DNA of 57,128 nucleotides from a virus. Taxonomy: Duplodnaviria; Caudoviricetes. Under the pieces are notes generated by a model, which saw only the letters and a program-made list of their open reading frames with translations, was not told the origin of the DNA and made no database searches. Location of the stretch: the IMG/VR virus record IMGVR_UViG_3300022752_000082, positions 1 through 57,128 of that record; one strand, 5' to 3'. The translations under genes were made by a program, and so were the position numbers. Shown piece by piece: positions 5,804-25,629 of this stretch (the stretch's first letter is position 1; each line of letters opens with the position of its first letter).

Positions 5804-5823
5804 GTTTCCTCCGCTATTCTACG

Positions 5824-7350: not shown

Positions 7351-7463
7351 CAGCGGCTCCGGCTCCGGCGCGGACGCTGTGCGCGCCGCGCGGTGCCCCG
7401 GGTGAACCGGTAGACCTTGCGTGCTTTGAGGATGCTGTAGATCATGAGTCTATTATACCACTT

Positions 7464-7676
7464 TTAGAACTCATCGGCGGCAAGTTCTTCGAGCCACTCG
7501 GCCAGGCACTTTTGCGCGAGCGCGTCGGTCTTGTGGCTGTGGCCGCAGCACGTCGTGGTGCCGTCATGCCAGATGATCCTCGCACCGTACCTCGCGAATG
7601 ACGAGTATCCGGCCTGGAGGTATGTGTCTGAGCCCGCGACCTGCTTCGCGGCCGGGGCTGTGGTGGTAGGTTCCAT
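7464..7676 (-). CDS. Hypothetical protein, leaderless
   Basis: ATG after a 6-nt spacer from TATAAT; CGHSH..C; stop TAA lies inside motif 7446. Confidence 0.7.
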   Translation of the reverse strand: MEPTTTAPAAKQVAGSDTYLQAGYSSFARYGARIIWHDGTTTCCGHSHKTDALAQKCLAEWLEELAADEF

Positions 7677-7711
7677 GAGTCTATTATAACACCTGTAGAA
7701 AGTACCGGTGC

Positions 7712-7733
7712 GCCCGGGGCTTGCGCCCCGGGC
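7712..7733 (-). terminator. GC stem-loop
   Basis: GCCCGGGGC-GCAA-GCCCCGGGC; same stem as 3537-3558. Confidence 0.55.
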
Positions 7734-7745
7734 CCGCGTGTCCGG

Positions 7746-8183
7746 TCAGATGAAGTCGCTCGTCCGGAGCCCGGTGTCGTTGCCCTGGCTGTCGTAGGCG
7801 AACGGGTCGAGGCCGACGCGGTCCCCGTAGCCCGAGTAGTAGAGGGCTTCCGCGTCGCGGTCGCGATCGGACTGCCGGGTGCCCTCTCGGGCCTCGTCGG
7901 CTGCCCACTCGGCCGCGGCTTCCGCGCACCACTCGATGCGCTCGGCCTCGGTCATCTCGAACACCGACATCTGCTTGTCGCCGACGTAGAACCGGTAGTT
8001 CACGTAGGTCGCCGTGAAGCCCTTGTGCAGGGACTGCCAGGCGTCCTCGCCGACTCCGGCTGGTGCCGGCGGAACCTCGAGCGGCGCGTGCCACACGGTC
8101 TCGCCGGTCGCCGCACGGGTGTGCGGAAGCATGCCGTCTTCGGTCAACTCGAGGTTCATCGAGTCGAGGTAGGTGGATGTCAT
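7746..8183 (-). CDS. Hypothetical acidic protein
   Basis: CCGAAAGGACA RBS; motif 8222. Confidence 0.75.
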   Translation of the reverse strand: MTSTYLDSMNLELTEDGMLPHTRAATGETVWHAPLEVPPAPAGVGEDAWQSLHKGFTATYVNYRFYVGDKQMSVFEMTEAERIEWCAEAAAEWAADEAREGTRQSDRDRDAEALYYSGYGDRVGLDPFAYDSQGNDTGLRTSDFI

Positions 8184-8256
8184 TGCGTATGTCCTTTCGG
8201 TTAGTGCCGGCGGTTGCCGACAAGTCTATTATAACACTTGTAGAAGTGGTCTCGTC

Positions 8257-8430
8257 TCAGACGAGTCCGAACCTCCGGCGCAGTTCGGCGGCCGTCACCT
8301 TGTCAAGGGTCGCCGCGACACCGGCGACGACCTCACGGACGATGTCGTCACCGGACACATCCGGATAGTCGTCCACCGCGTCGTCGATTGCGTCATTCAC
8401 TTCTTGGATGGCTTCGTCAAGTTTGGTCAT
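8257..8430 (-). CDS. Hypothetical protein, leaderless (not in ORF track)
   Basis: MTKLDEAIQEVNDAIDDAVDDYPD...; ATG after a 6-nt spacer from TATAAT of motif 8431. Confidence 0.65.
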   Translation of the reverse strand: MTKLDEAIQEVNDAIDDAVDDYPDVSGDDIVREVVAGVAATLDKVTAAELRRRFGLV

Positions 8431-8448
8431 GAGTCTATTATACCACTT

Positions 8449-8829
8449 TTAGAAGTCACCGCGGTTATCATCGAACTCCTCGACTGTGACCGCGAACTTG
8501 AACGTCGACAGCGCGAGCGCGGACTCGGCCGCGTCACGGTCGCGATACACATGCCAATAGTCTGGGTTAGATGAGAACCTTTCGCCTCCGTAGGCCCACG
8601 GACCGCACCACGCCTTCTGGTCGCGTCTTCGGACCAAGACGTAGCGCAGCGCAGACTCTTCTTCACGCTCTTTGGTGGCAACAGGCACTGTCCCCAGCGG
8701 GGTGCCATCAATCTTTGTCCCGCGGCCTGCCGGCGCCGGGAACGCCAATGTAAGCAGCCCTGGCGGAGACCACAGCCGCATGTCGGCCGCCTTCAGCGGC
8801 GGAAGGTATCGTTTCTTGTCTCTTCGCAT
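8449..8829 (-). CDS. Hypothetical protein, leaderless
   Basis: Starts right after motif 8830; ends TTC TAA in motif 8431. Confidence 0.6.
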   Translation of the reverse strand: MRRDKKRYLPPLKAADMRLWSPPGLLTLAFPAPAGRGTKIDGTPLGTVPVATKEREEESALRYVLVRRRDQKAWCGPWAYGGERFSSNPDYWHVYRDRDAAESALALSTFKFAVTVEEFDDNRGDF

Positions 8830-8836
8830 GAGTCTA

Positions 8837-9100
8837 TTATAACGTCTTTAGAAACGTCTCGTCTGGGTACCGGTCGGCGACCTTCCGCGCGAGTCCCGGA
8901 AGCGCGCGCAGCAGAGCGCGAACGCACACCTCACAGATGTTGAACGCCTCATCCTCGCCCCACGGCTCCCACGGCGCGTCGTCAACGAAGCCGCCGTAGT
9001 AGCCCATGTCCCTGAACGGGACGACGAGCCCGCGAGAGATCAGGTGCTCGTTGACGGAGTCGCACTCGTGTACGACTCCGCACGAGTCACACGCCCGCAC
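8837..9100 (-). CDS. Cys-motif hypothetical protein
   Basis: CDSC...CEVC; ends TTA TAA in motif 8830; start uncertain. Confidence 0.55.
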   Translation of the reverse strand: MRACDSCGVVHECDSVNEHLISRGLVVPFRDMGYYGGFVDDAPWEPWGEDEAFNICEVCVRALLRALPGLARKVADRYPDETFLKTL

Positions 9101-9111
9101 CGCCGCGGCGC

Positions 9112-9321
9112 TCAGCAGTGTCCCCAGACACGCTGGTGCATCGCGGCGATGTCGTGCGCCTGCTCCGGGCTGGTGCAGTGCATCTCGAACCGCACGGTGT
9201 CGGTCGAGTCGCCTGTCGGGCTCGAGAACCAAAGCTCGACGATGTTGCCAAAGATCATGTACCCGCGGTACGCGCCCTTGTTTATCTGCTCGAGGCTAAG
9301 TTGTTCGTCTGTCATTGCCAT
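9112..9321 (-). CDS. Hypothetical protein
   Basis: CCGAAAGGACA RBS; motif 9359. Confidence 0.7.
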   Translation of the reverse strand: MAMTDEQLSLEQINKGAYRGYMIFGNIVELWFSSPTGDSTDTVRFEMHCTSPEQAHDIAAMHQRVWGHC

Positions 9322-9384
9322 GTCGTTTGTCCTTTCGGTTAGGTCGGCTCGTGCCGGTGATTCCATTATAACACCTTTAGAAGC

Positions 9385-9585
9385 CTAGGCCCTTCTTCGC
9401 ATCGCCCACTTTGGAGCGACGCCGGCGGCCTCACAGTCGTCACAGACGAAGAATGCGCCAAGGTACCCGGCGAAGCCGCAGAGGACAGTAGCCCTATGCG
9501 TCTCGCAGGTCTGGCAGACCTTCGGCTTGGCCTTGAACCGGCCGTTTCTCGATCGCGCTTGCTTCATACCGCGAGCGCGATCCAC
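9385..9585 (-). CDS. Small Zn-binding protein
   Basis: CQTC...CDDC; true start may be ATG 9567. Confidence 0.55.
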   Translation of the reverse strand: MDRARGMKQARSRNGRFKAKPKVCQTCETHRATVLCGFAGYLGAFFVCDDCEAAGVAPKWAMRRRA

Positions 9586-9797
9586 TCGGCGAGGTTGAGG
9601 CTCCGCGTCTTGCGGAGGACCCAGACCTGCGCGTCGGCGAGGTCGTCAAAGCCCTCACCGCTCACCGCGTTCTCTTCGCCGCCGTGGCGCTTGATGACCA
9701 CGACCCTGCCGGCCGCATCGCGCCCGACCCAGAGAGTGATCTGCCTGTCGCCGACGTAGACCGCGGCCTGCGGCCACTGCATCCAGTTCGTTTCCAT
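9564..9797 (-). CDS. Hypothetical protein
   Basis: CCGAAGGGAC RBS; motif 9836. Confidence 0.7.
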   Translation of the reverse strand: METNWMQWPQAAVYVGDRQITLWVGRDAAGRVVVIKRHGGEENAVSGEGFDDLADAQVWVLRKTRSLNLAEWIALAV

Positions 9798-9853
9798 GTT
9801 GTTCGTCCCTTCGGTTAGTGCCGGCAGACGCCGGCAAGTCTATTATAACACTT

Positions 9854-10033
9854 TTAGAAACCCAGGTCGGCGAACGCCTCGCTGAGCTCGCGCTGCTGCC
9901 GGGCGTTGAGGCCCTCCGCGGCGACGATGTTGCTGATCACTTCTTCGACGTGTTCGGAGCCGAAGTCGGGGAAGTCCGCGGCCAGGTCCTCAAGTGCGTC
10001 GCTTGCTAGTTGCTTGATGTTGATGGTGGTCAT
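9854..10033 (-). CDS. Hypothetical protein, leaderless (not in ORF track)
   Basis: MTTINIKQLASDALEDLAADFPDF...DLGF*; stop inside motif 9836. Confidence 0.65.
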   Translation of the reverse strand: MTTINIKQLASDALEDLAADFPDFGSEHVEEVISNIVAAEGLNARQQRELSEAFADLGF

Positions 10034-10040
10034 GAGTCTA

Positions 10041-10205
10041 TTATAACGCTTTTAGAAGCTTGATGGCCTCGGCGAGGTCCGGGTGCTTCCAGTTCTTGAT
10101 GCCGATGTTGCGCAGCAGCCACTTCTTGTCGATCGGCTCGAGACGACCCGCAGGGAGATCCATGCGAGCGAGCAGCTCGTGCAGTCGGGTCTGGTCCGCG
10201 TTCAT
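10041..10205 (-). CDS. Hypothetical protein
   Basis: MNADQTRLHELL...WLLRNIGIKN; ends in motif 10034. Confidence 0.6.
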   Translation of the reverse strand: MNADQTRLHELLARMDLPAGRLEPIDKKWLLRNIGIKNWKHPDLAEAIKLLKAL

Positions 10206-10207
10206 CG

Positions 10208-10345
10208 TCAGTCCCAGTTCCCGCGGCGGCACGCCTTACGGCTGGCCTCCCGCTTCTTGTTGGGAATCGTCTGGGCCTTGAGGACATTCCGATCCGCGAA
10301 GGCTTGGCGGTCTTCTTTGTTCCACTTTGTGCTTGGTTTGGTCAT
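10208..10345 (-). CDS. Small basic protein, leaderless (not in ORF track)
   Basis: MTKPSTKWNKEDRQAF...KACRRGNWD; follows motif 10346. Confidence 0.55.
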   Translation of the reverse strand: MTKPSTKWNKEDRQAFADRNVLKAQTIPNKKREASRKACRRGNWD

Positions 10346-10424
10346 GAGTCTATTATAACACTTTTAGAACTGGGTACCGCGGCTGCCGGCCGGGCTTGTG
10401 CCCGGCGCGGCGGCCTTGGTAGCC

Positions 10425-10736
10425 TCAGGCGGTGAAGTTCAGGGCCTGCACGCGCTCAAGAGCGGTCCAGGCTGCATTGCTGAGCTCGGCTTGCTTGTCC
10501 TCTGAGCGGTAGGTGGCCTGCGTGAGGTCCGCAAGGCGGAAGGCTACCACCGGGCGGAAGCCGGCATCTGACCAGCGGAGGACATACGCCTCGTGGTCAT
10601 CCACGCCCGCACGGACTTCAGTGACCACCTTGAAGAGGCCCTTGTCAGTGTTGACCAGGAGCTCCACGGTTGACCTAGCATTGTAGCCATTCGTGTTGAC
10701 GTAGTTCTCAAGCACGGCGTGCGTGTTGACTTTCAT
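10425..10736 (-). CDS. Hypothetical protein
   Basis: CCGAAGGGACA RBS; motif 10780. Confidence 0.7.
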   Translation of the reverse strand: MKVNTHAVLENYVNTNGYNARSTVELLVNTDKGLFKVVTEVRAGVDDHEAYVLRWSDAGFRPVVAFRLADLTQATYRSEDKQAELSNAAWTALERVQALNFTA

Positions 10737-10855
10737 TCGTTGTTGTCCCTTCGGTTGTACCGGCGCCCTTTGCGCCGGTGATTCCATTATAACACTTTTA
10801 GAAAGTGGCGCTTGGCGGCCCGGGGCTTGCGCCCCGCGGCCGCCGCGCCTGGCTC

Positions 10856-11107
10856 TTAGGCCTCCAGGATGACCCGGTACCCGCGGTCCACCTTGGCCCA
10901 CTTCTTCTCAGCGGCGGCGGCCATGGCGGCCTGGCTGCTGGAGAAGGTGACTCGGCTGACCTGGCGGCGCACCTTTTCGGCCATGCCCCAAGAGAAGGTC
11001 ACGGTGTTCTCGCTCACGAGAATCTCGTAGACTTTCTGCTTGCCTGCCTGGCCGCGGCCCATTGGGCCGTGGTCGCTTCCCTTGGTGAGGATGATTCGCT
11101 TTTCCAT
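10856..11107 (-). CDS. WGR-domain-like protein, copy 2
   Basis: Shares GPMGRGQAGKQKVYEILV and NTVTFSWGMAEKV with 4092..4343. Confidence 0.8.
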   Translation of the reverse strand: MEKRIILTKGSDHGPMGRGQAGKQKVYEILVSENTVTFSWGMAEKVRRQVSRVTFSSSQAAMAAAAEKKWAKVDRGYRVILEA

Positions 11108-11277
11108 CGCTGTGTCCCTTCGGTTGTACCAGCACCGGTTTGTGCTGGTGATTCTATTATAACACTTTTAGAAAGTGGTTGGCGCGTTCCGCGCCGGGGC
11201 GATAAGGACGACCAGGGCGAGGTCGCGGTGCGTGTATTCTGCCCGCTTTATTCTCGCCCCGGCCGTCCCCAACCGAC

Positions 11278-11508
11278 CTAGTTGGCCGCGACCGAGCGGA
11301 CCGTGACCTGCGGCTGGCTGAGCGTCAAGAGCGCGCGGCCCAGGGTCTCCTCGACCGTCTCGCCTTTAGCCGAGGCGACGTAGAAGGTCACCGAGTCGTC
11401 GCCGCGCGAGAAGGTGACCGTGATGCGGCCCTCCCAGACGGTGACGTCGACGCCGGGGACACTGCTTTCGAAGCCAGTGCTACCGTGCATGTGAGTTGTC
11501 GTTGTCAT
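11278..11508 (-). CDS. Hypothetical protein
   Basis: AAAAGGACA RBS; motif 11553. Confidence 0.7.
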   Translation of the reverse strand: MTTTTHMHGSTGFESSVPGVDVTVWEGRITVTFSRGDDSVTFYVASAKGETVEETLGRALLTLSQPQVTVRSVAAN

Positions 11509-11621
11509 TGCGTATGTCCTTTTGTCGTTGTGGTTGGCCGGCTTGTGCCGGTGAGTCCATTATAACACTTTTAGAATCCCACCCCTGCCCGGGGGCACCG
11601 CGCCCCCGGGCCGGGTCGAGA

Positions 11622-11945
11622 TTACTTGGCTTGGAGGACCGTGTAGGCGGTCTCCGTGAGGCAGGCCGCGTAGGCCTCCGGGAAGGCGGCCTTGAGGGCC
11701 TCGCGGTCGATGTTGCTGCGGTTGCGGTGGTTCACCCGCACGCGCTCCACGCCGTTGATGACGCCGATGTCCGCGCCTTGGAGGAGAGCGCGGATTGCGT
11801 TCTCAGCCTCGGCCTTCTTCGCCTCGAGCGCCTTGATGGCCGCCTTCGCCTCGTTGAACTCGACGATCAGCGCCTCGGCGCTCGGGTCGAGGACCGCGAC
11901 GTGCTCGGAAGACACGACGGTCGTGGTGGTGGTGATTGTGGTCAT
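11622..11945 (-). CDS. Coiled-coil phage protein, copy 1 (resembles the C-terminal part of YqaJ-type phage exonucleases)
   Basis: Near-identical to 24384..24710; IDREALKAAFPEAY...TVLQAK; family resemblance is an inference. Confidence 0.75.
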   Translation of the reverse strand: MTTITTTTTVVSSEHVAVLDPSAEALIVEFNEAKAAIKALEAKKAEAENAIRALLQGADIGVINGVERVRVNHRNRSNIDREALKAAFPEAYAACLTETAYTVLQAK

Positions 11946-12065
11946 TGCTGTCCTTTCGGTTGTTGTCGCGGCACCCTTTGTGCCGCTGGTATCCATTATA
12001 ACACTTTTAGAAAGTAGCCGGCGGTGGCCGGAGGCGCCATGTGCGCCGCCGGCCACCGCGTCGAC

Positions 12066-12299
12066 CTAGACCGCGACCGCCCCGAGGTCCTCGGTGTCGA
12101 GGTTCCAGTGGTACGCGACCGCTTCGAGGTCTTCCACGTCGATGGTGAACTCGTACACGGGCCAGCCGCCTGTCGTGTACTTCGTCTTTTTCCACCGCAC
12201 AGACGGTGCCGCGTCACGCAGGTCGGCCAGCACGTCCTTGAGCGTCTCGTTGTCATCCGAGCCGCCCCAGGCCACCGGGCCCATAAAGCGCATTTTCAT
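12066..12299 (-). CDS. Hypothetical protein
   Basis: RBS and motif 12341; GGWP motif shared with the next cassette. Confidence 0.7.
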   Translation of the reverse strand: MKMRFMGPVAWGGSDDNETLKDVLADLRDAAPSVRWKKTKYTTGGWPVYEFTIDVEDLEAVAYHWNLDTEDLGAVAV

Positions 12300-12418
12300 T
12301 GATGTTGTCCCTTCGGTTGGGCGACGCGGGTGCGCCGCTGGAATCCATTATAACACTTATAGAAACCGACCGGGCGAGGCGCGAACGCCCTCGCCCGGGT
12401 CGATTCCTTATTCGATTG

Positions 12419-12688
12419 TTATTCGATTGTTGACGGAAGGTCGTCGGTGAGTTTGAGGAAGAAGTCGTAGTCGTCGCTGTACCCGAAGAACTCCGCGAAC
12501 GCCGGGAGATCTTTTGAGTGAATGATGACTCGGCCTTGCGGCCAGCCGCCGCCGCTTCCTTCAAACTTCCATAACTGCACGAACGCCGACGGGCAAACCC
12601 TGGTCAACTTTTCCAGCATTTGCGGCCACGTGTCGGACGTGTCGTCCCACGGTAGGTCGATGTCGTCGATAAACTTCCATTCCATCAT
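12419..12688 (-). CDS. Hypothetical protein
   Basis: RBS and motif 12727; GGGWP motif. Confidence 0.7.
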   Translation of the reverse strand: MMEWKFIDDIDLPWDDTSDTWPQMLEKLTRVCPSAFVQLWKFEGSGGGWPQGRVIIHSKDLPAFAEFFGYSDDYDFFLKLTDDLPSTIE

Positions 12689-12807
12689 TGTGTCCCTTCG
12701 GTTGTACCGGCGCCCTTTGCGCCGGTGATTCCATTATAACACTTGTAGAAACCACGCAGGCTTCGATGGTCGCCATAGATGGAGTCGAGGTCGATGTCGA
12801 CCTCGGC

Positions 12808-12984
12808 CTACGAGCGAGCGAAGACGAGTGTTTCGACGACGGCCTTCTCGAGCGCGCTCAGGCCTTCGGCGGACGCGTACGCGTCGACCAGGGCCTCGGT
12901 CGCCTCTTGGTCGCCTGCGTACTCAGCGTTCGCGGTCGCGACGATGTCGTCGGCGATCTTGATCAGTTTCTCGTTTGGTCTCAT
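12808..12984 (-). CDS. Hypothetical protein (not in ORF track)
   Basis: MRPNEKLIKIADDIVATANAEY...; CCGAAAGGACA RBS; motif 13008. Confidence 0.65.
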   Translation of the reverse strand: MRPNEKLIKIADDIVATANAEYAGDQEATEALVDAYASAEGLSALEKAVVETLVFARS

Positions 12985-13035
12985 GTCTTGTGTCCTTTCG
13001 GGTTGTTGAGTCCATTATAACACTTATAGAAACAG

Positions 13036-13103
13036 GCCCGTCTGCACGGCGCGTGCCTAGCGTGCCTGTGCCCGTCTGCACGGCGCGTGCCTAGCGTGCC
13101 TGT
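13036..13103. repeat. Tandem 34-bp direct repeat containing CCCGTCTGCAC
   Basis: GCCCGTCTGCACGGCGCGTGCCTAGCGTGCCTGT x2; related sequence at 19368-19395. Confidence 0.9.
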
Positions 13104-13106
13104 GCG

Positions 13107-13697
13107 TCACACCGGGCGGTGCTGCGTGAAGTAGCTAAACGGTTGGCCCGTCCCGGAGTCGAGGCGTGCCGCGACGTGCAGAGCCTTCTTGGCTGCTTCG
13201 CGCGCTTGCTCGATGTCGTCGGTCCCGTCAGGCAGCATGGCGTGTAGCGCGCCGACAGCAAAGTCTCCTCCCGAGCCGAGCCCGTATAGCCCGGTCGAGT
13301 CCCGTGCCCATGAGTAGTCTTGCCCGATGGTGTAGGCAGCGCCGTTGACGACGACCAAGATCTCCGAGCCGGCCTCGGCCGAGCCCGTCTCCGAGTTGCG
13401 TACCTCGCCGTACCCGTTCTTCTCGAAGCACGACCGCAGTGCCGGAACGAAGTCGCGCGTGATGAACCGATCGAGCTTTGCCTCGACGTATGACTGCGCG
13501 TCCGGCGGAGTGAATGCGTACGCGAGTAGGTTGATCGCCCGCACATCGCCGGCGGCGCCGAGCAGGTACTTGCGATTCCTTGTGACCTTGCTTCCTGCCT
13601 TCGCGAGCGTGTAGGTACGTCCGTACTCCTCGGTGACGCGCGAGTCGGCGCCGACCACGACCCACCGCGGGCCTTGGATAGCGACAAGCGTCGTCAT
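13107..13697 (-). CDS. HslV/proteasome-beta-like Ntn threonine protease
   Basis: N-terminal M-TT, VGADSRVT...K, GAAGD, GLGSGGDFAVGAL, DSGTG. Confidence 0.85.
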   Translation of the reverse strand: MTTLVAIQGPRWVVVGADSRVTEEYGRTYTLAKAGSKVTRNRKYLLGAAGDVRAINLLAYAFTPPDAQSYVEAKLDRFITRDFVPALRSCFEKNGYGEVRNSETGSAEAGSEILVVVNGAAYTIGQDYSWARDSTGLYGLGSGGDFAVGALHAMLPDGTDDIEQAREAAKKALHVAARLDSGTGQPFSYFTQHRPV

Positions 13698-13909
13698 TCG
13701 TCTGCCGGCAGTGGGTTCTCGATGAGCATCACCTTGACCGCGTTCTGGATCTTTGCGATGTCGGAGTTCTTCGACTGGAGCGGGTTGTCACAGAACTTCT
13801 TGACCTGTGACTTCTTCACTCCGGACTTCTCTGCTACCTTGTCGATGCCGAGCTTTCGGACGGTGCCGGTGAGGTCGAGCATCTTGTCTGATACCTGCGC
13901 TGTTGCCAT
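13694..13909 (-). CDS. Small Cro/XRE-like HTH protein
   Basis: GIDKVAEKSGVKKSQVKKF...IAKIQNAV; motif 13938; ATGA-coupled to the protease. Confidence 0.55.
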   Translation of the reverse strand: MATAQVSDKMLDLTGTVRKLGIDKVAEKSGVKKSQVKKFCDNPLQSKNSDIAKIQNAVKVMLIENPLPADE

Positions 13910-14048
13910 GTAAGTTGTCCCTTCGGTTGAGGTTGTTGAGTCTATTATAACACTTTTAGAATCGGGCGCAATGCGAAGCACCGGCACCGGCCCCGCCTCT
14001 CTGGGCATGGGTTGTCGGTGCCGGCGCCACTCGCATGGCAGTGCGACC

Positions 14049-14249
14049 TTACTTCTTCTGCTCCATCACGACGACTCCGGTCGTGCTGTGCCTCTTTGAG
14101 CCGCAGGTCGGCGGGTACTTCGCCTTGAAGTGCAGGACTATTCCCTGCCCACACTTGGGGCACTCCCACTTCACGCTGACCTTGGGCTTCTTTTCTTTGA
14201 CGGCCTCGGTCGACTCTTCAGTCGTCTCCGGCTCGGTTTCTTCTGCCAT
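14049..14249 (-). CDS. Small Zn-ribbon protein
   Basis: WECPKC...PPTC...H; AGGAGG RBS; motif 14276. Confidence 0.7.
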   Translation of the reverse strand: MAEETEPETTEESTEAVKEKKPKVSVKWECPKCGQGIVLHFKAKYPPTCGSKRHSTTGVVVMEQKK

Positions 14250-14419
14250 GCTGAACCTCCTAGGTTGTTGGTGTTGATTCTATTATAACACTTTTAGAAA
14301 CAACACCGAGTAGTCACTGTCGCTTTCGACTACTGTACTTCATTCCCAGGATGAGAAAGGTGACCACCGCCCAGGTAATCGCGGCGGCTGTGTTTGTGAT
14401 GTCGACCTCGAACCGCATG

Positions 14420-14686
14420 TCACTTGCCTCCCTGCTTCTCGAGCATCGCGGTGAGGCCGCTCATGAGACTCGACATTCCACTCGAGACTTCACGCTCGGT
14501 GATGATGTGGTCGAACGCATCGGACAACCCGACGAGGATGTCGAAGTGGTCGTTGTTCTCTTCAGTGCGCTCGTCCGGCGGGATCTCGAGCAACATCGCC
14601 TGGTACAGCGTGACCGCACACTGCACGGCCTCGAGCGCCTCGATCGGCATCTCGAACTTGATTGAGTGGTTGTCGTTGTTTGTCAT
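14420..14686 (-). CDS. Hypothetical protein
   Basis: AAGGAG RBS. Confidence 0.65.
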   Translation of the reverse strand: MTNNDNHSIKFEMPIEALEAVQCAVTLYQAMLLEIPPDERTEENNDHFDILVGLSDAFDHIITEREVSSGMSSLMSGLTAMLEKQGGK

Positions 14687-14747
14687 ATGACTCCTTGTTG
14701 TCGTTGTTGGTAACTATACCGCGTCGCTTAGCGAATCCCGGGATGAC

Positions 14748-14945: not shown

Positions 14946-14946
14946 G

Positions 14947-17326: not shown

Positions 17327-17424
17327 TGCTTGGTTTGTCCTTTCGGTTGTGGTTGGTGATTCCATTATAACACTTTTAGAAACTGCCGGCCCGGGGCGAA
17401 GCCCCGGGACCGGCGTGACTTTGG

Positions 17425-17625: not shown

Positions 17626-17670
17626 TGCGGTTGTCCTTTCGGTAGGTACCGGCGGCTGCCGGTGATTCTA

Positions 17671-18137: not shown

Positions 18138-18370
18138 ACCAGTGCCTCGACTTCTTCGATTGCGCGCTGGGCGAGACCGTCGATGTACTCGGCGACATTC
18201 CCGACCGCGCCCAAGATGTAGTACGGGCTTTGCTCGACGGGGTGTGTCTTGTAGTCGTACGGCGTCGCGAGGTTCTCCATGTAGACCTCCATCTTGGCGC
18301 ACTGAGTGCGGATCTGACGGAGCGCCCACTCGAGTCGCTCGACCTGCTGTAGTAGTTCTGTCTTCGTCAT
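18134..18370 (-). CDS. Hypothetical protein
   Basis: RBS and motif 18410. Confidence 0.7.
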   Translation of the reverse strand: MTKTELLQQVERLEWALRQIRTQCAKMEVYMENLATPYDYKTHPVEQSPYYILGAVGNVAEYIDGLAQRAIEEVEALV

Positions 18371-18480
18371 TGCGTTGTCCCTTCGGTTGTGGGCTTGCGC
18401 CCGGTTGATGATTCTATTATAACGCTTTTAGAAACACCCCGGGCCGGGGAGCGCCTGCTCCCCGGGCCCAGGTCGATGGA

Positions 18481-18984
18481 TTAGTCGCCCGAGTCGACTC
18501 GGCTCCAGGCGCCGCACACCGAGCACTTGTACTCGTTGTAGCAGCGGCCCAGGTTGCGAGTCACCCACTTGTGGTTGCAGCCCACCTCGAGTTCGACGAA
18601 CTTGTGGTCGTCGCCGTACCAGTACGGCTCGCACAAGATGACGACGTTGAAGTTGTCGCCGCCGGACTGGCCGTGGTACGGTGGAGTGAAGAGCGTCGCC
18701 TTGACGCTTTCAAGACCGTAGGTGTGGCCAAGCACCTTGCGCATGTCGAGCGGGATGAGGTTGCCGGCCTCACCCAGGTACTCCCACCCGGTGTCGAACT
18801 CAGCGACTCGCTCCAAGATGTGGGCCAGGCGGTAGTGCCCTGGGACCACCTCGGCGCGCACCAAGTGCTTGCGCATCGCGTTGCCAAGGCCACCCCACTT
18901 CTCAGTGAGTTGCGCCATGTACTTCGCCCGGTTGTCGCGGGTGATCTCCCACGGCTGCTTCGGGCGCGTGACTGTGTCTGTCAT
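18481..18984 (-). CDS. Phage protein with C-terminal Zn-ribbon
   Basis: GCNHKW...GRCYNEYKCSVCG..VDSGD; motif 19020. Confidence 0.75.
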   Translation of the reverse strand: MTDTVTRPKQPWEITRDNRAKYMAQLTEKWGGLGNAMRKHLVRAEVVPGHYRLAHILERVAEFDTGWEYLGEAGNLIPLDMRKVLGHTYGLESVKATLFTPPYHGQSGGDNFNVVILCEPYWYGDDHKFVELEVGCNHKWVTRNLGRCYNEYKCSVCGAWSRVDSGD

Positions 18985-19086
18985 TGCGTTGTCCTTTCGT
19001 TGGGCCGGCGGATGCCGGCGAGTCCATTATAACTCTTTTAGAAAGTCGCTAGGCCCGGGGCTACGCACCCGGGGCTCATAGTACGA

Positions 19087-19299
19087 CTAGGCGTGAACCG
19101 GCTCGTCGACGACGACCTCGGCGTCAGCGCCGGTGACTTCATCGATTCGATGAATCTCGACGCAGCCGTCTGTGTCGCCGAAGCGCACGAGTTCGTCGAG
19201 TCGCTTCGCGTACTCGGCCTCCGAGTTCGCCTCGAGCGTGTACGTGATTCTGGCCTCTGACGGCCACACGAGCACAACCTTGTGATACTTCTTTGGCAT
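19087..19299 (-). CDS. Hypothetical protein
   Basis: RBS and motif 19340. Confidence 0.7.
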   Translation of the reverse strand: MPKKYHKVVLVWPSEARITYTLEANSEAEYAKRLDELVRFGDTDGCVEIHRIDEVTGADAEVVVDEPVHA

Positions 19300-19525
19300 C
19301 GCGTTGTCCTTTCGTTGAGTTAGGTCGGCTGCTGCCGACGAGTCTATTATAACACTTTTAGAAACGTGCCCGTCTGCATGGCGCGTGCCTTAGCGGGCCT
19401 GTGTGTCGTCGACTCGGTAGCACTCAACGCACTCACCTCCGAGAGAGTCCTCCCACCAGTGAGGGTCGATGCCAGGCCAGTTTATCGACAAGATGAGTGG
19501 CTGGCCGCAGCTACGGCAAGGCCAC

Positions 19526-19605
19526 ACCGTCTGCACCGGCGTGCCCCCGGGCCAGGCGTGCCCGTCTGCACCGGCGTGCCCCCGGGCCAGGCGTGCCCGT
19601 CTGCG
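19526..19605. repeat. 35-bp tandem repeat with CCGTCTGC core
   Basis: CCGTCTGCACCGGCGTGCCCCCGGGCCAGGCGTGC x2 plus a third partial unit. Confidence 0.9.
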
Positions 19606-19663
19606 CTCAGCGCGCCTAGCGAGCCAGCGTGCCGCGACGAGCGTCGTGATGATGCTCACCGCG

Positions 19664-19951
19664 TTAGTGATCGACGGTGAACGCGGCCAGCTCAGCCAAC
19701 TGAGTCCATGACAGCTCGTACTTGAATGTCACGCCTCCTTCGGTCAGGCCACGGAACCTGATGCCGTTGTTGAACACGTCAAGCTCGAGTTCTTCCTCGA
19801 CTGGGTCGTGCGTGTCGCTGATGAAGATGCGGACACGGTTGAACTGGTCGACGTCGAGCTCGCCGGCGAAGATGCCGACCACCGGGACTTCGTCAAAGTC
19901 GACCGTGCCGTCATCGTCTTGGTGCACGATGACATCCTTATTCGTTGTCAT
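19664..19951 (-). CDS. Hypothetical acidic protein
   Basis: Overlaps the upstream gene; GGAG RBS. Confidence 0.6.
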   Translation of the reverse strand: MTTNKDVIVHQDDDGTVDFDEVPVVGIFAGELDVDQFNRVRIFISDTHDPVEEELELDVFNNGIRFRGLTEGGVTFKYELSWTQLAELAAFTVDH

Positions 19952-20192
19952 CGAAGTACTCCGGGTAGACGTTGCCAATGGCGGTGTCTGGGTTTGCGTC
20001 CTCGCTTACCTCGACCCACAGCGAGCCGTCCTCCGGGTTCTCGCGGAAGATGATCGTGAAGATGCTGTCATCGTCGATGAGCACGCTGAGCAGCGCGTTG
20101 CGCGCGTTGCGCTTGCGAACTACCACGTCCTGCATCCAGATGCGGCGCTCGTTTTGTGGTACCTTGCGCTTGGGTTTCTTCTTCTTTGGCAT
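19938..20192 (-). CDS. Hypothetical protein
   Basis: AAGGAGAG RBS. Confidence 0.65.
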   Translation of the reverse strand: MPKKKKPKRKVPQNERRIWMQDVVVRKRNARNALLSVLIDDDSIFTIIFRENPEDGSLWVEVSEDANPDTAIGNVYPEYFDDNE

Positions 20193-20222
20193 GTGTCTCT
20201 CCTTGTTTGTTGTGTTGTGCCG

Positions 20223-20426
20223 TTATTGTTGGTTGAGCTCGAGCTTCCCCTGAGCGGGGTTGCTCTCGTAGTTCGCTTGAATCTGCGCGGCGATGTTCCA
20301 GCGCTCGCTGTCGGCGCACATCTCGATCGCCTCGACTTCTTCATCGGACCACTTGCTGGTGTCGATGATGAGAAGCTCCTCGGCGTCGCCGTAGCTTCCA
20401 TCTTTTGCGAAGTATGTAAGTTGCAT
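20223..20426 (-). CDS. Hypothetical protein
   Basis: YFAKDGSYGDA; RBS and motif 20452. Confidence 0.7.
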   Translation of the reverse strand: MQLTYFAKDGSYGDAEELLIIDTSKWSDEEVEAIEMCADSERWNIAAQIQANYESNPAQGKLELNQQ

Positions 20427-20529
20427 GTCACTGTCTCCTTTTGTTGTTGTTGGTTCTATTATAACGCTTTTAGAAGCCACGCGGCAGGGCGTAGGAAGGA
20501 AGGGAGGGCGCCCCACCGCGTGACCGAAC

Positions 20530-22371
20530 TTATCGGCGCTCACTTACCTGCGTGAGCTGCTGCGCCGCGCTGCGTCCGATGTGGGTCGCGATGTCCTGCG
20601 TCGCGGTCATGCCTGGCTCGATGCGGACGACCACGCCGTTCTTGCGGACAATCTTCTCTGGTGAAGCGTCCGTGGGGTCGAAGGTGACCCAGGTGACCGC
20701 CACACCGGAGGCCGCGCACTGGGCTGCCCAGGCGGACGCCGCTCGCTCCTGGTCGTGCGTGTAGCAGCCATCACTGACTACCACCAGCATCTTGGCGCCG
20801 GTGCCGTTGAGCAAGTTGAGTGAGCCGTCGAGAGCCTTGAAGGCCTGGTCAAACTTCTCGGTTCCGTCACACGCTGTGTACACGTTGACTTCGCTGAGGT
20901 GCTGTCCTGGCTTGAGAGTCGGGAAGACGCCCTGGCCGTAGTAGACCATCGCGGCTCGACCCTGCACGCGGCGCACGGCCTCGCTGAGAATCCACGCGGT
21001 GGACGCCATCGGCTGCATCGCCGCGGACATTGAACCGCTGATGTCGACCATCACGCCGACGGTGAGTGTCGGGTCGTCAGTGTGCTTGCGCACCGTGCGG
21101 CGCCAGGGCTCGACTTGCGTCATCACTCCCTTGGCCTTGAACGCTGCGCCCTGCACCATCGCGCGTGTGCGCAGCCGGCCGGGAGGGATGACCGAGGTGA
21201 CCTCGGTCTCGTCACGCTCGCGGTACTTGGCCTTTTCGAGAAGCTGCGCGAGGCGCACGGCAGAGGTGCGCTCGTCGGTACGCGGCTTGCGCGTCTCGAC
21301 CAGCGAGCTGCTTGTGCGCTCGTCAGCGACCGGGCCTGTGCCCTTGCCGAATACTTTCTGGGCGGTCTCGCGATTCTCCGCCGTGCGCTTTGCTGACTGC
21401 GCACGCGTGCTCGCCTCCTCGCGCCACTCTTCAGTTTGCTGCTGCTCGGCCGCGTCATCCGCTGCACCGATCGACGCGTTGTCGGCTGCTTCCTCGAGCT
21501 CTTTCATCAGCTCTTCCATCATGCCTGCCGTCTCCGGGTCGTCCTCGCCTTCGGTGCCGCCGCCGCCTGCGCCGCCGCCTGCGCCGCCGAAGGAGTCAGC
21601 CATCTCGCCTTCGCCGGCGTCCTTGGCTGCATCTTCGACGAGCTTGGCCCAGCGGCGTGCGATGTCATAAAGCTTTTCGATGTCGTGCGCCTCGGTGACT
21701 TGCGCCTCGCGCCAGAGCTCGGCGAGCTTGTTGAAGAGGTCAACGCCAAGCTTCTTGGTGATGACTCGCTCAATCGACTCGATGTCCTCGAACATGACCG
21801 AGCCTGCGTCGACTCGAGCAGACGTAAGTGCAAGCACCTGTGCGGCCGCGCGTGTCGGCGTGAGCTCGGTGATCGGGTTGAGCTCGAGGTCTGACATCAC
21901 GATGCCAAGCACGCACGCGCGCAGGAAGCACGCGTTGTCCGGGTACATCTTGAGGCCCTGCGCCTCGATGCGGCCCTCCTCCAAGAGCACCAGTGCGTGA
22001 ACCTCGGCCTGAGTAAGCGCCTCGTGCGCAGCAGGCAGGTCCCAGGTCGAGAAGCGAGCGTGAAGCGCCTCGTGAAAGATGAGGCCGGTGGCTTGCGCGT
22101 ACTCGAACTGCACGTTGCGCTCGGTGATGTTGCCGACGCGCTTGGGGTCGACCTTGCCGAAGGCGACGCCTGCGTCGAGCTCCATCTCGGCGGTGAGCGG
22201 CGCGAAGCACGCGGGAGCGCCGCTGCTTGTCCTGCTGCCGATGCGCACCGCGATGTCGCCGCGCCCTGCGAGCATGTTGGCTAACTGACCGGCTTGCGAA
22301 CCGGCGAGCAGCCAGGCCGGGTCAACCGGAGCGCTGGCTCGCGTTCGTTTGTTGTAGTCGATGTGTCCCAT
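20530..22371 (-). CDS. VWA (MIDAS) protein with N-terminal HExxH domain, CobT-like partner of MoxR
   Basis: FHEALH...LEEGRIE, acidic Gly linker, VDISGSMS, VVSDG; start may be 22392. Confidence 0.85.
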   Translation of the reverse strand: MGHIDYNKRTRASAPVDPAWLLAGSQAGQLANMLAGRGDIAVRIGSRTSSGAPACFAPLTAEMELDAGVAFGKVDPKRVGNITERNVQFEYAQATGLIFHEALHARFSTWDLPAAHEALTQAEVHALVLLEEGRIEAQGLKMYPDNACFLRACVLGIVMSDLELNPITELTPTRAAAQVLALTSARVDAGSVMFEDIESIERVITKKLGVDLFNKLAELWREAQVTEAHDIEKLYDIARRWAKLVEDAAKDAGEGEMADSFGGAGGGAGGGGTEGEDDPETAGMMEELMKELEEAADNASIGAADDAAEQQQTEEWREEASTRAQSAKRTAENRETAQKVFGKGTGPVADERTSSSLVETRKPRTDERTSAVRLAQLLEKAKYRERDETEVTSVIPPGRLRTRAMVQGAAFKAKGVMTQVEPWRRTVRKHTDDPTLTVGVMVDISGSMSAAMQPMASTAWILSEAVRRVQGRAAMVYYGQGVFPTLKPGQHLSEVNVYTACDGTEKFDQAFKALDGSLNLLNGTGAKMLVVVSDGCYTHDQERAASAWAAQCAASGVAVTWVTFDPTDASPEKIVRKNGVVVRIEPGMTATQDIATHIGRSAAQQLTQVSERR

Positions 22372-22542
22372 TGTTGTGTCCTTCCTAGACATTGTTGTTG
22401 GTCGGGCTTGCGCCCTGATTCTATTATAACACTTTTAGAAACGGTATTGGTGGTGAGAGAGCCGGCCGGGACCTACCACAGTCCGGCCGACTCCCTCCCG
22501 GCGAGTCCTTCCTCGACGAGGAAAGGATGACTCAAATCGAGG

Positions 22543-23538
22543 TCAGATTCTCGCCGGCCTGAACTCCGCTCCTAAGACGCGGGTCAGGACATCTGCTACC
22601 ACCGGGCGGTCAATCTCGGGCGCTGCTGCGAGCAGGTTCTCCACCGCGAACTTGGTGCCGAACGCGACTTCCAGGTCGCGGAAGGCGAGCAGCTCGCGCA
22701 TCTGCGGAGCCCAGGTGGTCTCCGCTGCCTGCTGCTTCTTGGCCAGGTTCTGCGCCGCCGTGACGAGCGCGGACGAGACTCCAAGCTTGCGAGCGAGAGT
22801 CCAGTCAGTGGTCATCTCCGCCTGCACGGTGAATCGTGAGAGAAGCGCCTCAGACAGGCGCACGCCGGGAGCGTTGGGGTTAGTGGCCGCGATGACGTAG
22901 AAGCCATCGGCCGCCTTGACCGTGCCGCGCTCTGGGTTGGCCGTGACCGTGTACTCGCGGCGGCCGTCCATCAGACCGTAGACGATGCTGAGCACCTTCG
23001 GGTCGATGAGGCCAACCTCGTCGATCAGCAGCACGCCGCCTGACTCGGCAGCCTTGAGCAGCGGGCCGTCTTCCCAGATGAAGCCACCGCTTGGCGTCTG
23101 CACGTAGCCGCCGACCAGGTCAGCGACCTCAGTGTCACCCGAGCCAAGCACGGTGAAGAGTCCACCGTCCTGGTCGTGGAATGCAGCTTCGACAAGAGCA
23201 GTCTTGCCGCAGCCGGGCGAGCCGTAGAGGAGCACGTAGCTGCTCATCTCGCGAGCCTTGCGAAGCACCGCGATGTCGAGGTGGTCGCCCCACGCGCGAG
23301 TGTAGTATAGCTCGCCGTTCGGGCGTGCGTACGACTTTTCGCCGGTGAGGGCATTCGCCGCCACTGTCTTCACCACCTTTGGTGTCTTGGGCTTGAATGT
23401 GCTGAGCTTGCCGTATGGGTCGACTGCCTTGTCAAGGGCCGCCCACGCGTCGGTGCTCACGGCCTGGGTCATCGTGTTGATGACAAGGTCCGAGAGCCCC
23501 GGGTAGAGCTCATTGTACTTCGTTGTGATTGGGTCCAT
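22543..23538 (-). CDS. MoxR/CbbQ/CobS-like AAA+ ATPase
   Basis: GSPGCGKT, LLIDEV, AATNP, LSEALLSRF, sensor-2 MREL. Confidence 0.9.
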   Translation of the reverse strand: MDPITTKYNELYPGLSDLVINTMTQAVSTDAWAALDKAVDPYGKLSTFKPKTPKVVKTVAANALTGEKSYARPNGELYYTRAWGDHLDIAVLRKAREMSSYVLLYGSPGCGKTALVEAAFHDQDGGLFTVLGSGDTEVADLVGGYVQTPSGGFIWEDGPLLKAAESGGVLLIDEVGLIDPKVLSIVYGLMDGRREYTVTANPERGTVKAADGFYVIAATNPNAPGVRLSEALLSRFTVQAEMTTDWTLARKLGVSSALVTAAQNLAKKQQAAETTWAPQMRELLAFRDLEVAFGTKFAVENLLAAAPEIDRPVVADVLTRVLGAEFRPARI

Positions 23539-23610
23539 TGCGTTGTTTGTCCTTTCGTTTGGTAGGTTGAGTTGGTATTGCTGTTTCTATTATAACGCTT
23601 TTAGAAAGCG

Positions 23611-24066
23611 TCACTTGATGAAGGTGGTCGGAAAGCCGTGCTTGCGGCGGACCTTGAGCACGCGGCCGATGAGCTTGTACGGCGTGTTGCGGGCTATGAT
23701 GTCCTCCAGGTCCTTTTCAGAGACCTGCACGACGATCGGCTGCTTGTGCACGCGGAAGCCGCGTGTGTGCAGGCGCTCAATCGTCTGGTTGATGAACTCG
23801 CGGCGCATCTCCGCAGTCGACTCGGGCAAGAACGACGAGTGAGATGGCGAGAGGTAGCGCCACTGCTTCTTCGGTCCGCCGGCGCTGAGCTGCCTGCGGT
23901 AGGTGATCGCCGGGGTCTTGAGCGTAGGCGTGACCTTGCTCTGGGCCTCCGGGCAGATGAGCATCTGGAAGACGCTCGTGTCGATGCTGTGCGGGAGCAC
24001 AAACTCGAGGTACACGGCGTGTCCCACGAGAAGTGAGTCCTTCAGCTTTTCGTCATTTGGTGTCAT
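23611..24066 (-). CDS. Hypothetical protein
   Basis: RBS and motif 24106. Confidence 0.7.
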   Translation of the reverse strand: MTPNDEKLKDSLLVGHAVYLEFVLPHSIDTSVFQMLICPEAQSKVTPTLKTPAITYRRQLSAGGPKKQWRYLSPSHSSFLPESTAEMRREFINQTIERLHTRGFRVHKQPIVVQVSEKDLEDIIARNTPYKLIGRVLKVRRKHGFPTTFIK

Positions 24067-24140
24067 TGCGTTGTTTGTCCTTTCGGGTAGTGGTTTGGTA
24101 TCGCGTAGTCTATTATAACACTTTTAGAAACGGCCCGGGC

Positions 24141-24296
24141 CTACGCGTCGAGGACCGCCTGGTCGTCTTGGTGAAGCTTGTCGGCGTAGATGCCGGTGTA
24201 GATGACGAGCTGCCCTTCGTTGTCGACCTCGACATCGAACTCTTCGACGGCGAGGATGAGCGCGTCAAGCTTCTTGTCACTGAGTCTTTTCTTCAT
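24141..24296 (-). CDS. Small hypothetical protein (not in ORF track)
   Basis: MKKRLSDKKLDAL...DNEGQLVIYTGIY; GAAAGGACA RBS. Confidence 0.6.
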   Translation of the reverse strand: MKKRLSDKKLDALILAVEEFDVEVDNEGQLVIYTGIYADKLHQDDQAVLDA

Positions 24297-24383
24297 TGCT
24301 GTGTCCTTTCTGGTAGTTGGGATGAGGTTGGGTGCTGCTCCCGGCGGCGGATGACCGCCACCGCCGGGAGTCGAGCGTGTGGG

Positions 24384-24710
24384 CTATTTGGCCTGGAGGA
24401 CCGTGTACTGCGACTCGGTCAGAGTCGCGGTGTACGCCTCGGGGAAGGCCGCCTTGAGCGCCTCGCGGTCGATGTTCGAGCGGTTCCGGGTGAGGATGCG
24501 GACGCGCTCGACGCCGTTGATGGCGCCGACGGACGCGGTTCCGAGCATCGCGCGGAGCTTGGTCTCGGCCTCGAGCTTCTTGGCCTCGATCGCCTTCATC
24601 GCGGCCTTGGCCTCGTTGAACTCGACGATCAGCGCCTCGGCGCTGGCTTCGAGGTTGGCGACCTCTTCGGTGGTCGTGACGACTGTGGTCGTCGTTGCGG
24701 TGGTTGTCAT
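24384..24710 (-). CDS. Coiled-coil phage protein, copy 2
   Basis: Paralog of 11622..11945; motif 24751. Confidence 0.75.
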   Translation of the reverse strand: MTTTATTTTVVTTTEEVANLEASAEALIVEFNEAKAAMKAIEAKKLEAETKLRAMLGTASVGAINGVERVRILTRNRSNIDREALKAAFPEAYTATLTESQYTVLQAK

Positions 24711-24844
24711 TGCGGTATTCCTCTCTGGGGCTGGTGCCCCGGTTGTTGTTGATTCCATTATAACGCTTTTAGAAACGGCGCCCGGGCTGTCTCGCCCGGG
24801 GCGCCTTATCTATAGTGACCGTAGCGCAGGGGTGTTACAGGGTT

Positions 24845-25360
24845 TCAGCAGATGCTGAAGCCGCCGCATGACTCGAGGAAGAGCGCAAACTCGTCGACAT
24901 TCGAGACATCGAACGGGTAGCCCGCGGCCCAGTGCTCTTTGGTGCCGACGCCGTCACAGCCATTGCACCAGCCGTGCGTGCGCCCGGTGAGGATCGCTAC
25001 CTCAGGGGGGAGCTCGCGTGTGGGCATGCCCATGTCTTGGCCGACCTTGTCAGTGCGGATGCCGGTACCTTCGCAGAGGCTGCACACCTCGCGAGGAAGT
25101 GCAGCGAGCTCGGCTCGGTAGTCTTCCTCGTACTTCTTGGTGCGGCCTGATCGAATCTCTGCGAAGAGAATCGCCGCGAGCTTCTGTGCGCCCTCCGCGT
25201 CGAGCCCTGAACCAGCGTTGCTGTGCCCATCGACTTCCTTGCAGAGCTCAGGAGCGACGTGTTCGCAGTAGTTCCAAAGTGGACGCCACCACCACACGTT
25301 GTTCCTGAAGTATTCGCCGGCATCGTCTGTCGGCGCCTTTCCGTATACATCCATTCCCAT
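24845..25360 (-). CDS. Phage protein with DnaJ-like CxxCxGxG pair
   Basis: YFRNNVWWWRPLW; CSLCEGTG and CNGCDGVG; GGAGG RBS; motif 25396. Confidence 0.8.
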   Translation of the reverse strand: MGMDVYGKAPTDDAGEYFRNNVWWWRPLWNYCEHVAPELCKEVDGHSNAGSGLDAEGAQKLAAILFAEIRSGRTKKYEEDYRAELAALPREVCSLCEGTGIRTDKVGQDMGMPTRELPPEVAILTGRTHGWCNGCDGVGTKEHWAAGYPFDVSNVDEFALFLESCGGFSIC

Positions 25361-25413
25361 GCTGTTTCCTCCAGTTGTTGTTGGGTTGGTATTGCGATAC
25401 TATTATACGACTT

Positions 25414-25629
25414 TTAGAAAGCCTTGATGCCTTCCGACTGGCACCACGGCTCAAAGTCGAGAGCCAGCTCGCGCATCCACTCGCTGACCCAGTTCTTGCG
25501 GCGCTCTTCGAATGTCTCGCCTGGGTGGTCGGGAAGAAAGCGTGCCTCCTCCTCGTACATCTCTTCGGCCTCGACCAGCATCATGTCGAGGTACTCCTGG
25601 TACCGCTCACGGGGAGTTTGGTTCACCAT
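25414..25629 (-). CDS. Hypothetical protein
   Basis: RBS and motif 25657; ends TTC TAA in motif 25396. Confidence 0.7.
   Translation of the reverse strand: MVNQTPRERYQEYLDMMLVEAEEMYEEEARFLPDHPGETFEERRKNWVSEWMRELALDFEPWCQSEGIKAF

Follow-up and report, generated by a model that had tools for sequence, protein, structure and literature searches.

The 57,128 bases of the IMG/VR virus record IMGVR_UViG_3300022752_000082, analysed in their entirety and referred to here as the window, contain a long array of small leftward genes separated by copies of a 21-nucleotide repeat. We propose, with a probability of about 0.72, that this repeat is a promoter of early small genes, that the stop codons within it are by-products of the promoter sequence, and that its copies serve as crossover points. 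Of the two stops in the motif, one TAA would belong to the -10 hexamer (TA-TAA-T) and the other to the box upstream of it. Because in-frame stops are rare in DNA of 61% guanine-plus-cytosine (GC) content (about three per 100 codons) and many genes are packed against the next promoter, a gene entering the motif in a stop-bearing frame would end there, and its last one to five residues would be encoded by the promoter. Recombination between two copies, probably ordinary homologous recombination like that of the promoter-early stem-loop (PeSL) cassettes of T4-type phages, would delete, insert or reshuffle whole promoter-gene units; since the stop lies in the shared sequence, the upstream gene would stay terminated whichever unit followed.

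On the gene strand the repeat reads TTCTAAAAGTGTTATAATAGA. A search allowing up to two mismatches recovered 35 copies; in 100 shuffles that preserved dinucleotides the mean was 0. All 35 are intergenic and oriented like the gene downstream: within the array almost all small leftward genes, or short groups of them, have a copy ahead, and the sole plus-strand copy (4025-4045) precedes the only rightward small gene there, open reading frame (ORF) 4092-4343. The motif contains a perfect TATAAT after TGn, with a conserved box, TTCTAAAAG, at about -24 to -16. Six copies (7469, 7700, 8454, 8853, 10057 and 10369) continue as TATAAT-AGACTC-ATG, so that the ATG lies exactly 6 nucleotides past TATAAT and its A coincides with the transcript start expected for that -10 box; the other copies are followed by a short GC leader hairpin, then GAAAGGA and then ATG. 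No conserved hexamer was present as a -35 element, and a sigma-70 consensus scan gave one site against 2.6 expected. As described in part of a study mapping transcription start sites in Mycobacterium tuberculosis (PMC3898074), promoters there have a TANNNT -10 element and no -35 consensus, activity is highest with TGN, and many transcripts are leaderless. Because the TATAAT/TGn geometry, the leaderless ATG spacing and the absent -35 element fit this pattern, we favour reading the repeat as an actinobacterial promoter with a -10 element only, an activity that we infer from its sequence.

Two stops are read directly on the gene strand of the motif, TAA at positions 4-6 and TAA at positions 15-17; in the usual ..AATAGA variant a TAG at 18-20 shares the frame of the second TAA, and the third frame is stop-free. 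A preliminary description of this DNA had noted that the repeat supplies the stop of the upstream gene in two reading frames and that at least eight ORFs end within it. Both observations hold: all eight ends and tails are correct, five at 4-6 and three at 15-17 (G1 to G8, Table 1). These unrelated proteins have common motif-encoded C-termini, as also described, with the tails F-stop and (F/L)LK(A/T)L-stop. A codon-usage model trained on long ORFs was used to choose the best-scoring frame at each of the 33 junctions having an upstream gene. Each of the eight ORFs was the best frame at its own junction, G7 (17671) and G1 (7464) with weak scores, and genes ending in the motif thus make up 8 of the 33.

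Table 1. Coordinates of the repeat array, of the genes that end in the motif, of the units skipped in related contigs and of mosaic blocks (strand, + or -; side, both and record are entries from the list of joints)
Feature	Position	Strand	Remarks
Motif array, 34 same-orientation copies	3966..25680	-	Pattern search
G1	7464..7676	-	70 amino acids, ends ..EF-stop; leaderless ATG 3 nucleotides past motif 7680-7700
Motif ending G1 via TAA 4-6	7449..7469	-	Leaderless ATG then at 7445
G2	8449..8829	-	126 amino acids, ends ..DF-stop; leaderless start past motif 8833-8853
Motif ending G2 via TAA 4-6	8434..8454	-
G3	8837..9232	-	Ends ..FLKTL-stop; start uncertain, probably GTG 9100
Motif ending G3 via TAA 15-17 inside TATAAT	8833..8853	-
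G4	9854..10033	-	59 amino acids, ends ..GF-stop; leaderless start past motif 10037-10057
Motif ending G4 via TAA 4-6	9839..9859	-
G5	10041..10232	-	Ends ..AIKLLKAL-stop; start probably ATG 10205
Motif ending G5 via TAA 15-17	10037..10057	-
G6	16363..16740	-	Ends ..PVRF-stop
Motif ending G6 via TAA 4-6	16348..16368	-
G7	17671..17946	-	Ends ..FLKAL-stop; likely start ATG 17850 (59 amino acids); weak codon score
Motif ending G7 via TAA 15-17	17667..17687	-
G8	25414..25629	-	71 amino acids, ends ..AF-stop; high codon score
Motif ending G8 via TAA 4-6	25399..25419	-
Skipped unit, 399 nucleotides, holds G2	8450..8848		Joint 8449->8849; motifs 8434-8454 / 8833-8853; shorter side 62 nucleotides, both 5
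Skipped unit, 198 nucleotides, holds G4	9839..10036		Joint 9838->10037; motifs 9839-9859 / 10037-10057; shorter side 165 nucleotides, record 17
Skipped unit, 386 nucleotides, holds gene 12419..12688	12360..12745		Joint 12359->12746; motifs 12344-12364 / 12730-12750; shorter side 255 nucleotides, both 8, record 18
Motif, leader hairpin and ribosome-binding site block	10744..10804	-	98% identical to 12691-12751, ahead of unrelated gene
Motif and leader block	16315..16377	-	92% identical to 18380-18442; likeness reaches slightly into G6 tail
Upstream hairpin and motif block	13008..13058	-	90% identical to 19340-19390; downstream leaders differ
Inverted cassette: motif variant, leader hairpin, ribosome-binding site, ORF 4092-4343, GC hairpin	4025..4379	+

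The preliminary description named a frequency at the level of chance in a compact genome as a result that would speak against it. With the 33 motifs placed at random over the 18.5-kb array, about 1.8 of about 49 gene stops are expected to fall in a motif, and the binomial probability of eight or more is 4e-4, but this null is naive and ignores the barrier effect of a fixed stop. The ORF list alone overstates the effect because half of the motif stops (30 of 60) terminate frames that stay open for at least 40 codons, coding or not. We therefore refer the count to tight (abutting) junctions, those with the gene's stop no more than 28 nucleotides upstream of the motif (n = 15). In the two stop-bearing frames, eight of nine genes at tight junctions end in the motif and the ninth has its own TGA at -6; in the stop-free frame all six have their own stop, at -4, -13, -13, -13, -16 and -28. 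The share of tight junctions is alike across frame classes (Fisher p = 0.44, with the frame assignment before junction 14299 was moved to the stop-free frame). Fifteen genes in stop-bearing frames have an upstream stop of their own; in 10 of them, the reading frame would next meet a stop in the motif. The probability of a stop at this base composition is about 0.03 per codon, and the chance of meeting none in 10 codons is 74%. Given this partition by frame and the rarity of in-frame stops, the motif behaves as a backstop, and a count of eight is expected from tight packing. The in-motif stops are mostly a barrier effect of a promoter rich in adenine and thymine (AT-rich) set against genes of 61% GC, and no special selection is needed.

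Relatives show this too. Of the 241 junctions compared across the family, 48 have the gene's stop within the motif (40 of 210 if the window is set aside), usually at position 4, and many more stops in relatives touch the upstream edge of the motif. The lineage with the box TTCCAGAG has no stop at position 4, and its genes end just ahead of the motif. The rule is a simple one, an AT-rich promoter acting as backstop for stop-poor GC-rich genes, and it bears on annotation: half of the motif stops terminate ORFs that are long but spurious, and real genes bear promoter-encoded tails.

At 19 junctions the gene stop lies 45-106 nucleotides upstream of the motif. Spacers were folded for 19 junctions (the 18 long ones and a 26-nucleotide spacer at 19363), and 16 contain a strong GC hairpin (z < -2, -22 to -60 kcal/mol), a likely terminator to judge from its predicted fold. 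The 14 tight junctions have no hairpin because there is no room for one. A terminator scan that requires a T-run returned 27 sites against 17.3 expected and missed most of these hairpins.

An alignment-based scan of IMG/VR gave 80 related loci (relatives are designated L below). The comparison with homologs that the preliminary description proposed turned out in favour of its reading for the four of the eight genes with distant homologs (G2, G3, G5 and G6), whose C-termini differ from those homologs in both length and sequence. Close relatives of G4 and G8 keep the same ends. G6 is 18-20 amino acids longer than its homologs in four sequence-distinct relatives (L016, L020/21/23, L028/30 and L024/26), all of which end in PL(S/N/G)E-x-stop at the same aligned place, three of them abutting a motif of their own. 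The C-terminus of G2 exceeds by 7 amino acids that of its homolog in L099, which has no motif after it. The homolog of G5 in L019 ends ..AVSLLKRAPALGSF-stop at position 4 of the L019 motif, that is, in the other stop-bearing frame, and G3 has a 13-amino-acid tail compared with a 47-amino-acid tail in its L019 homolog, which ends at position 4 of its own motif. Changes run both ways: G6 and G2 exceed their homologs in length, being extended as far as the motif, and G5 and G3 each fall short of a single homolog. C-terminal length differs from the best homolog by 19 (G6), 6 (G5), 34 (G3) and 7 (G2) amino acids, compared with a median of 1 and a maximum of 9 for 36 genes with their own stop (Mann-Whitney p = 7e-4). 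Genes that terminate in the motif thus show more remodelling at their ends than other genes do, by lengthening as well as by shortening, and where they stop is set by the motif.

Distant homologs of G1, G7 and G8 were absent from the 80 loci and from five larger relative records. A distant match to G4 was marginal (E = 0.008) and was not used. A search of a large protein database gave close relatives of G4 and G8 only, and PHROGs had no family for any of the eight genes.

The DNA encoding the extra tail of G6 (16369-16430) aligns loosely with 18434-18480, the terminator-hairpin spacer upstream of a near-identical motif block (18413-18433); the tail could have arisen from a spacer that came to be translated. 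G5 and its L019 homolog have LLK in common, which is motif-encoded in the window (10041-10060) and in L019 (15225-15263) comes from CTGCTGAAG, 27 nucleotides upstream of the motif. A small deletion between the two resembling stretches could have fused G5 to the motif.

Joining at the motif was examined in assembled contigs of four freshwater runs, aligned to positions 6501-26400 at 85% likeness. One run, X7, represents a related strain, most of its pieces being 88-97% like the window. Seven joints were listed, and three of them, all from X7, are in-register skips of exactly one motif-to-motif unit (Table 1). One letter lies between the sides of joint 9838->10037. Contig depths at the three skips are similar to those of other X7 contigs; dips in X7 depth between 8.5 and 10.5 kb were left out of the evidence. 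Worked out from the sequences, G3 and G5 still end after the skip at the same TAA, now of a hybrid motif. A contig of run X6 continues past motif 25660-25680 (from 25687) with 20 letters that match the flank (3987-4006) of motif 3966-3986; this loose end is a hint, too short to count, that the array's first copy and its last, about 21.7 kb apart, have been joined.

Blocks of near identity within the window also point to exchange. In the motif-and-leader blocks of 98% and 92% identity (Table 1) the identity begins at the motif and the genes behind are unrelated. ORF 4092-4343 of the inverted cassette and gene 10856..11107 are paralogs with 71% identity. Genes are heavily reshuffled in order among the window, L019 and DSL-LC01, an Actinomycetia phage assembled from a lake metagenome and the closest named relative (54% amino-acid identity across a 620-amino-acid protein). 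Genes thus appear to have been gained or lost by recombination between motif copies in related phages, a process whose mechanism and direction we infer. The preliminary description had proposed that genes were captured or trimmed by joining at the motif; this is partly supported, the skips giving direct support for gain or loss by joining and the mosaic blocks and differing C-termini pointing the same way, but the end changes are mixed in direction.

The paralogous small genes 11622-11965 and 24384-24710 (75% identical over 300 nucleotides) each follow a motif copy of their own. Their family is duplicated in DSL-LC01 (26218, 40950) and present in about 60 related loci.

Several points weigh against the reading of the repeat as a promoter whose copies are crossover points. 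The joints come from assembled contigs of one run, and assembly chimera at a repeat is possible; copies in the window share fewer than 30 identical letters, although those of the X7 strain may differ. The four other joints, left out of the evidence, are not motif-to-motif (7734->25655, 11966->15834 and 14601->23015, with sides of 21-27, and 18237->18321). Relative to L019, part of the rearrangement of gene order lies at junctions where the window lacks a motif (one example is within block 15853-14299), so the motif is not the sole place of recombination. Homologs remote enough for comparison exist for only four of the eight genes, and G3, G5 and G2 each depend on one homolog. The relatives of G4 are all close (79-100% identity, 59-60 amino acids, all ending ..LGF), as is the single database relative of G8 (96% identical, 71 amino acids, likewise ending ..KAF); across 79-96% identity both keep length and final residue, and these ends are thus stable at short evolutionary distance. 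Finally, the conserved upstream box may be an operator or a place where a phage factor acts.

A bolder version, which we offer tentatively and consider rather doubtful, is that in this family of freshwater actinophages the promoter repeat is a universal joint for self-contained cassettes, amounting to integron-like gene capture free of an integrase. The minimal unit would consist of promoter, 3 nucleotides, leaderless ORF and a stop taken from the next promoter. An excised circle would be a complete gene and could enter any other copy, in the same or a co-infecting phage; in-motif stops would be kept because they make the joints safe, the neighbouring gene never being left unterminated. If cassettes are indeed mobile in this manner, the array would be a natural test bed for the acquisition and trial of new small genes by phages.

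At the other extreme, compaction alone might account for the data: the motif would be a promoter, its stops the first available in GC-rich DNA, and the repeats would have no part in gain, loss or trimming. Although the frame partition, the equal share of tight junctions and the low stop probability explain the count without any further process, and some synteny breaks lie at motif-free junctions, we regard this as unlikely, since it leaves aside the three in-register motif-to-motif skips in X7, the near-identical regulatory blocks whose identity starts at the motif ahead of unrelated genes, and the significantly lower conservation of the C-termini of motif-ended genes.

The promoter-and-crossover reading was also set against an integron-like, site-specific system in which a phage recombinase recognises the motif and moves cassettes, the stop being part of the site. 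Integron attC sites are imperfect inverted repeats recombined as folded single-stranded DNA by the IntI integrase, and integron cassettes are mostly promoterless and depend on the promoter Pc. The present array resembles an integron in that single-gene units lie between repeated sites, an ORF end can reach into the site, and units are present or absent between relatives. The minimal units would likewise be complete genes on a circle, G2 and G4 are two of the three such units and both are missing in X7, and DSL-LC01 is annotated with a 'recombinase family protein'. Against this, the repeat is asymmetric and itself a putative promoter: read directly, the 21-mer has no inverted-repeat structure and no palindromic core common to it and its reverse complement, and each cassette has its own promoter-like motif, unlike integron cassettes. 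A Pfam scan of 20 larger window proteins, from a window that is about 38% of the genome, gave no recombinase family and no integrase. The place of crossover varies, from positions 5/6 with 5-8 nucleotides of ambiguity (two joints) to the downstream edge (one), and identity of leader and hairpin extends beyond the motif, as homology-driven exchange predicts. Such a system is very improbable, and the attC analogy drawn in the preliminary description is one of form only, not of mechanism.

Selected translational coupling, in which a stop 10-21 nucleotides before a leaderless ATG would let ribosomes reinitiate on read-through transcripts, was rejected as equally improbable because the association seen in the window (in-motif stops at 4/6 leaderless and 4/25 leadered junctions, Fisher p = 0.026) is absent from relatives (4/33 leaderless against 36/177 leadered, odds ratio 0.54, p = 0.34), and four of the eight in-motif stops precede leadered genes.

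The closest known system to the promoter array is the PeSL promoter/terminator cassettes of T4-type phages, a likeness in working and not homology. The accounts of PeSL that bear on this comparison describe repeated promoter and stem-loop units between ORFans, each unit starting in an AT-rich stretch with the stop of the gene before it (PMC2839356), and recombination between copies that leads to indels, shuffling and mini-circles (PMC2839356; PMC4122927); for PeSLs, experiments demonstrated the mini-circles and the activity of promoter or terminator (Arbiol et al. 2010, PMC2839356; Comeau et al. 2014, PMC4122927). Both systems have repeated composite units of promoter (here putative) and stem-loop, set among small function-unknown genes of a variable region, a stem-loop in the cassette (here the GC hairpins of the folded spacers), and indels or shuffling between related phages (here the skips and mosaic blocks, at contig level and in one run). 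The two lack sequence homology and differ in host phylum, the nearest relatives here being actinophages. PeSL promoters are sigma-70-like, whereas the repeat has only a -10 element and the upstream box, with no -35; six units here are leaderless, and the stop lies inside the promoter core, even in TATAAT, and in two frames. PeSL activity and mini-circles are experimental, whereas the present array is known from sequence alone. The idea of repeated promoter/terminator units as recombination linkers, known from T4-type phages of Gram-negative hosts, would thereby extend to an unrelated family of lake actinophages that is largely uncultured and poorly studied, with a different promoter type and some leaderless units. 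Our literature search for such repeats returned the T4-type PeSL papers only and nothing on actinophage promoter arrays.

Two further systems invite comparison. The stoperators of Cluster A mycobacteriophages (e.g. L5) are repressor-binding sites of 13-14 bp without a -10 box. They share with the present motif their shortness, asymmetry and uniform orientation, a copy number in the dozens, and a position in narrow gaps between actinophage genes, where they often touch stop or start codons; the motif differs in its perfect TATAAT at start-site distance from leaderless ATGs, which points to a promoter. The host-takeover module of Bacillus phage SPO1 contains many small early genes, nearly each with a strong promoter and terminator, and is alike in that respect, but the phage group and promoter type differ; we know of no role described for its repeats in stop codons or shuffling.

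The motif family is common to relatives, with lineage-specific upstream boxes, in DSL-LC01 ((AGA)TTCTAAAGATGTTATAAT), in L019 (TTCTAAAGnnGATATAAT) and in about 10 other IMG/VR lineages, whose versions are TTCTAAGG, AACTAAAG, ATCTAGGG or the TTCCAGAG form mentioned above. A term search of the DSL-LC01 paper (PMC10611076) found none of the words promoter, repeat or motif. A scan of IMG/VR for the exact motif yielded seven single matches, all in contigs of 33-35% GC without further copies, which we attribute to chance. About 45 of the 80 related loci have just 0-3 matches to the motif pattern, and a quick k-mer look at them gave other repeated motifs. Relatives without the TTCTAAAG box have other, highly repeated intergenic words at 10-19 copies per 12-22 kb: CCTGATATAAT in L033, L036, L050, L052 and L065, CTTGACAAATGTCA in L069, and GTATCCACTTTTTT in L087/L089, with L080, L085 and L064 also in this group. 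Part of these words are plain extended -10 promoters and part are quite different in look; each related lineage seems to have its own array signal.

The source is an uncultured freshwater actinobacterial phage. The window, the whole of its record, has an estimated completeness of 38%, a GC content of about 61% and a gene content that includes a large terminase, a class II ribonucleotide reductase, a primase-helicase, a WhiB-like regulator and collagen-like proteins. Microbacterium and Gordonia phages are remoter matches than DSL-LC01. DNA near-identical to the window is present in lake and freshwater metagenome runs; a megablast of window positions 7000-20000 against GenBank phages gave no match, and metagenome scans using G4 and using the motif pattern found nothing.

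Other features of the window lie apart from these questions. Its start (1-147) consists of tandem 7/14-nucleotide repeats of GTGGCGT-type units, with at least seven copies of a 56-nucleotide register, and could mark either an end of the genome or the edge of the assembly. Another repeat family, about 33 nucleotides long (..CCCGTCTGCAC..), has five copies at 19524-19591 and 27008-27787, some within genes, and also occurs within the hairpins upstream of motifs 13031 and 19363. Positions 31269-34019 encode a 917-amino-acid ORF with long ACCACA/ACTACA (Thr-rich) microsatellite runs, and 49991-57128 hold very long collagen-like G-x-y repeat ORFs; collagen-like proteins are annotated in DSL-LC01 too. 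Inside the promoter array, 20530-23538 encode a MoxR-type AAA_5 ATPase (331 amino acids) and a conserved 620-amino-acid partner, annotated in DSL-LC01 as 'cobalamin biosynthesis protein'; these two are the best-conserved genes over the 80 related loci.

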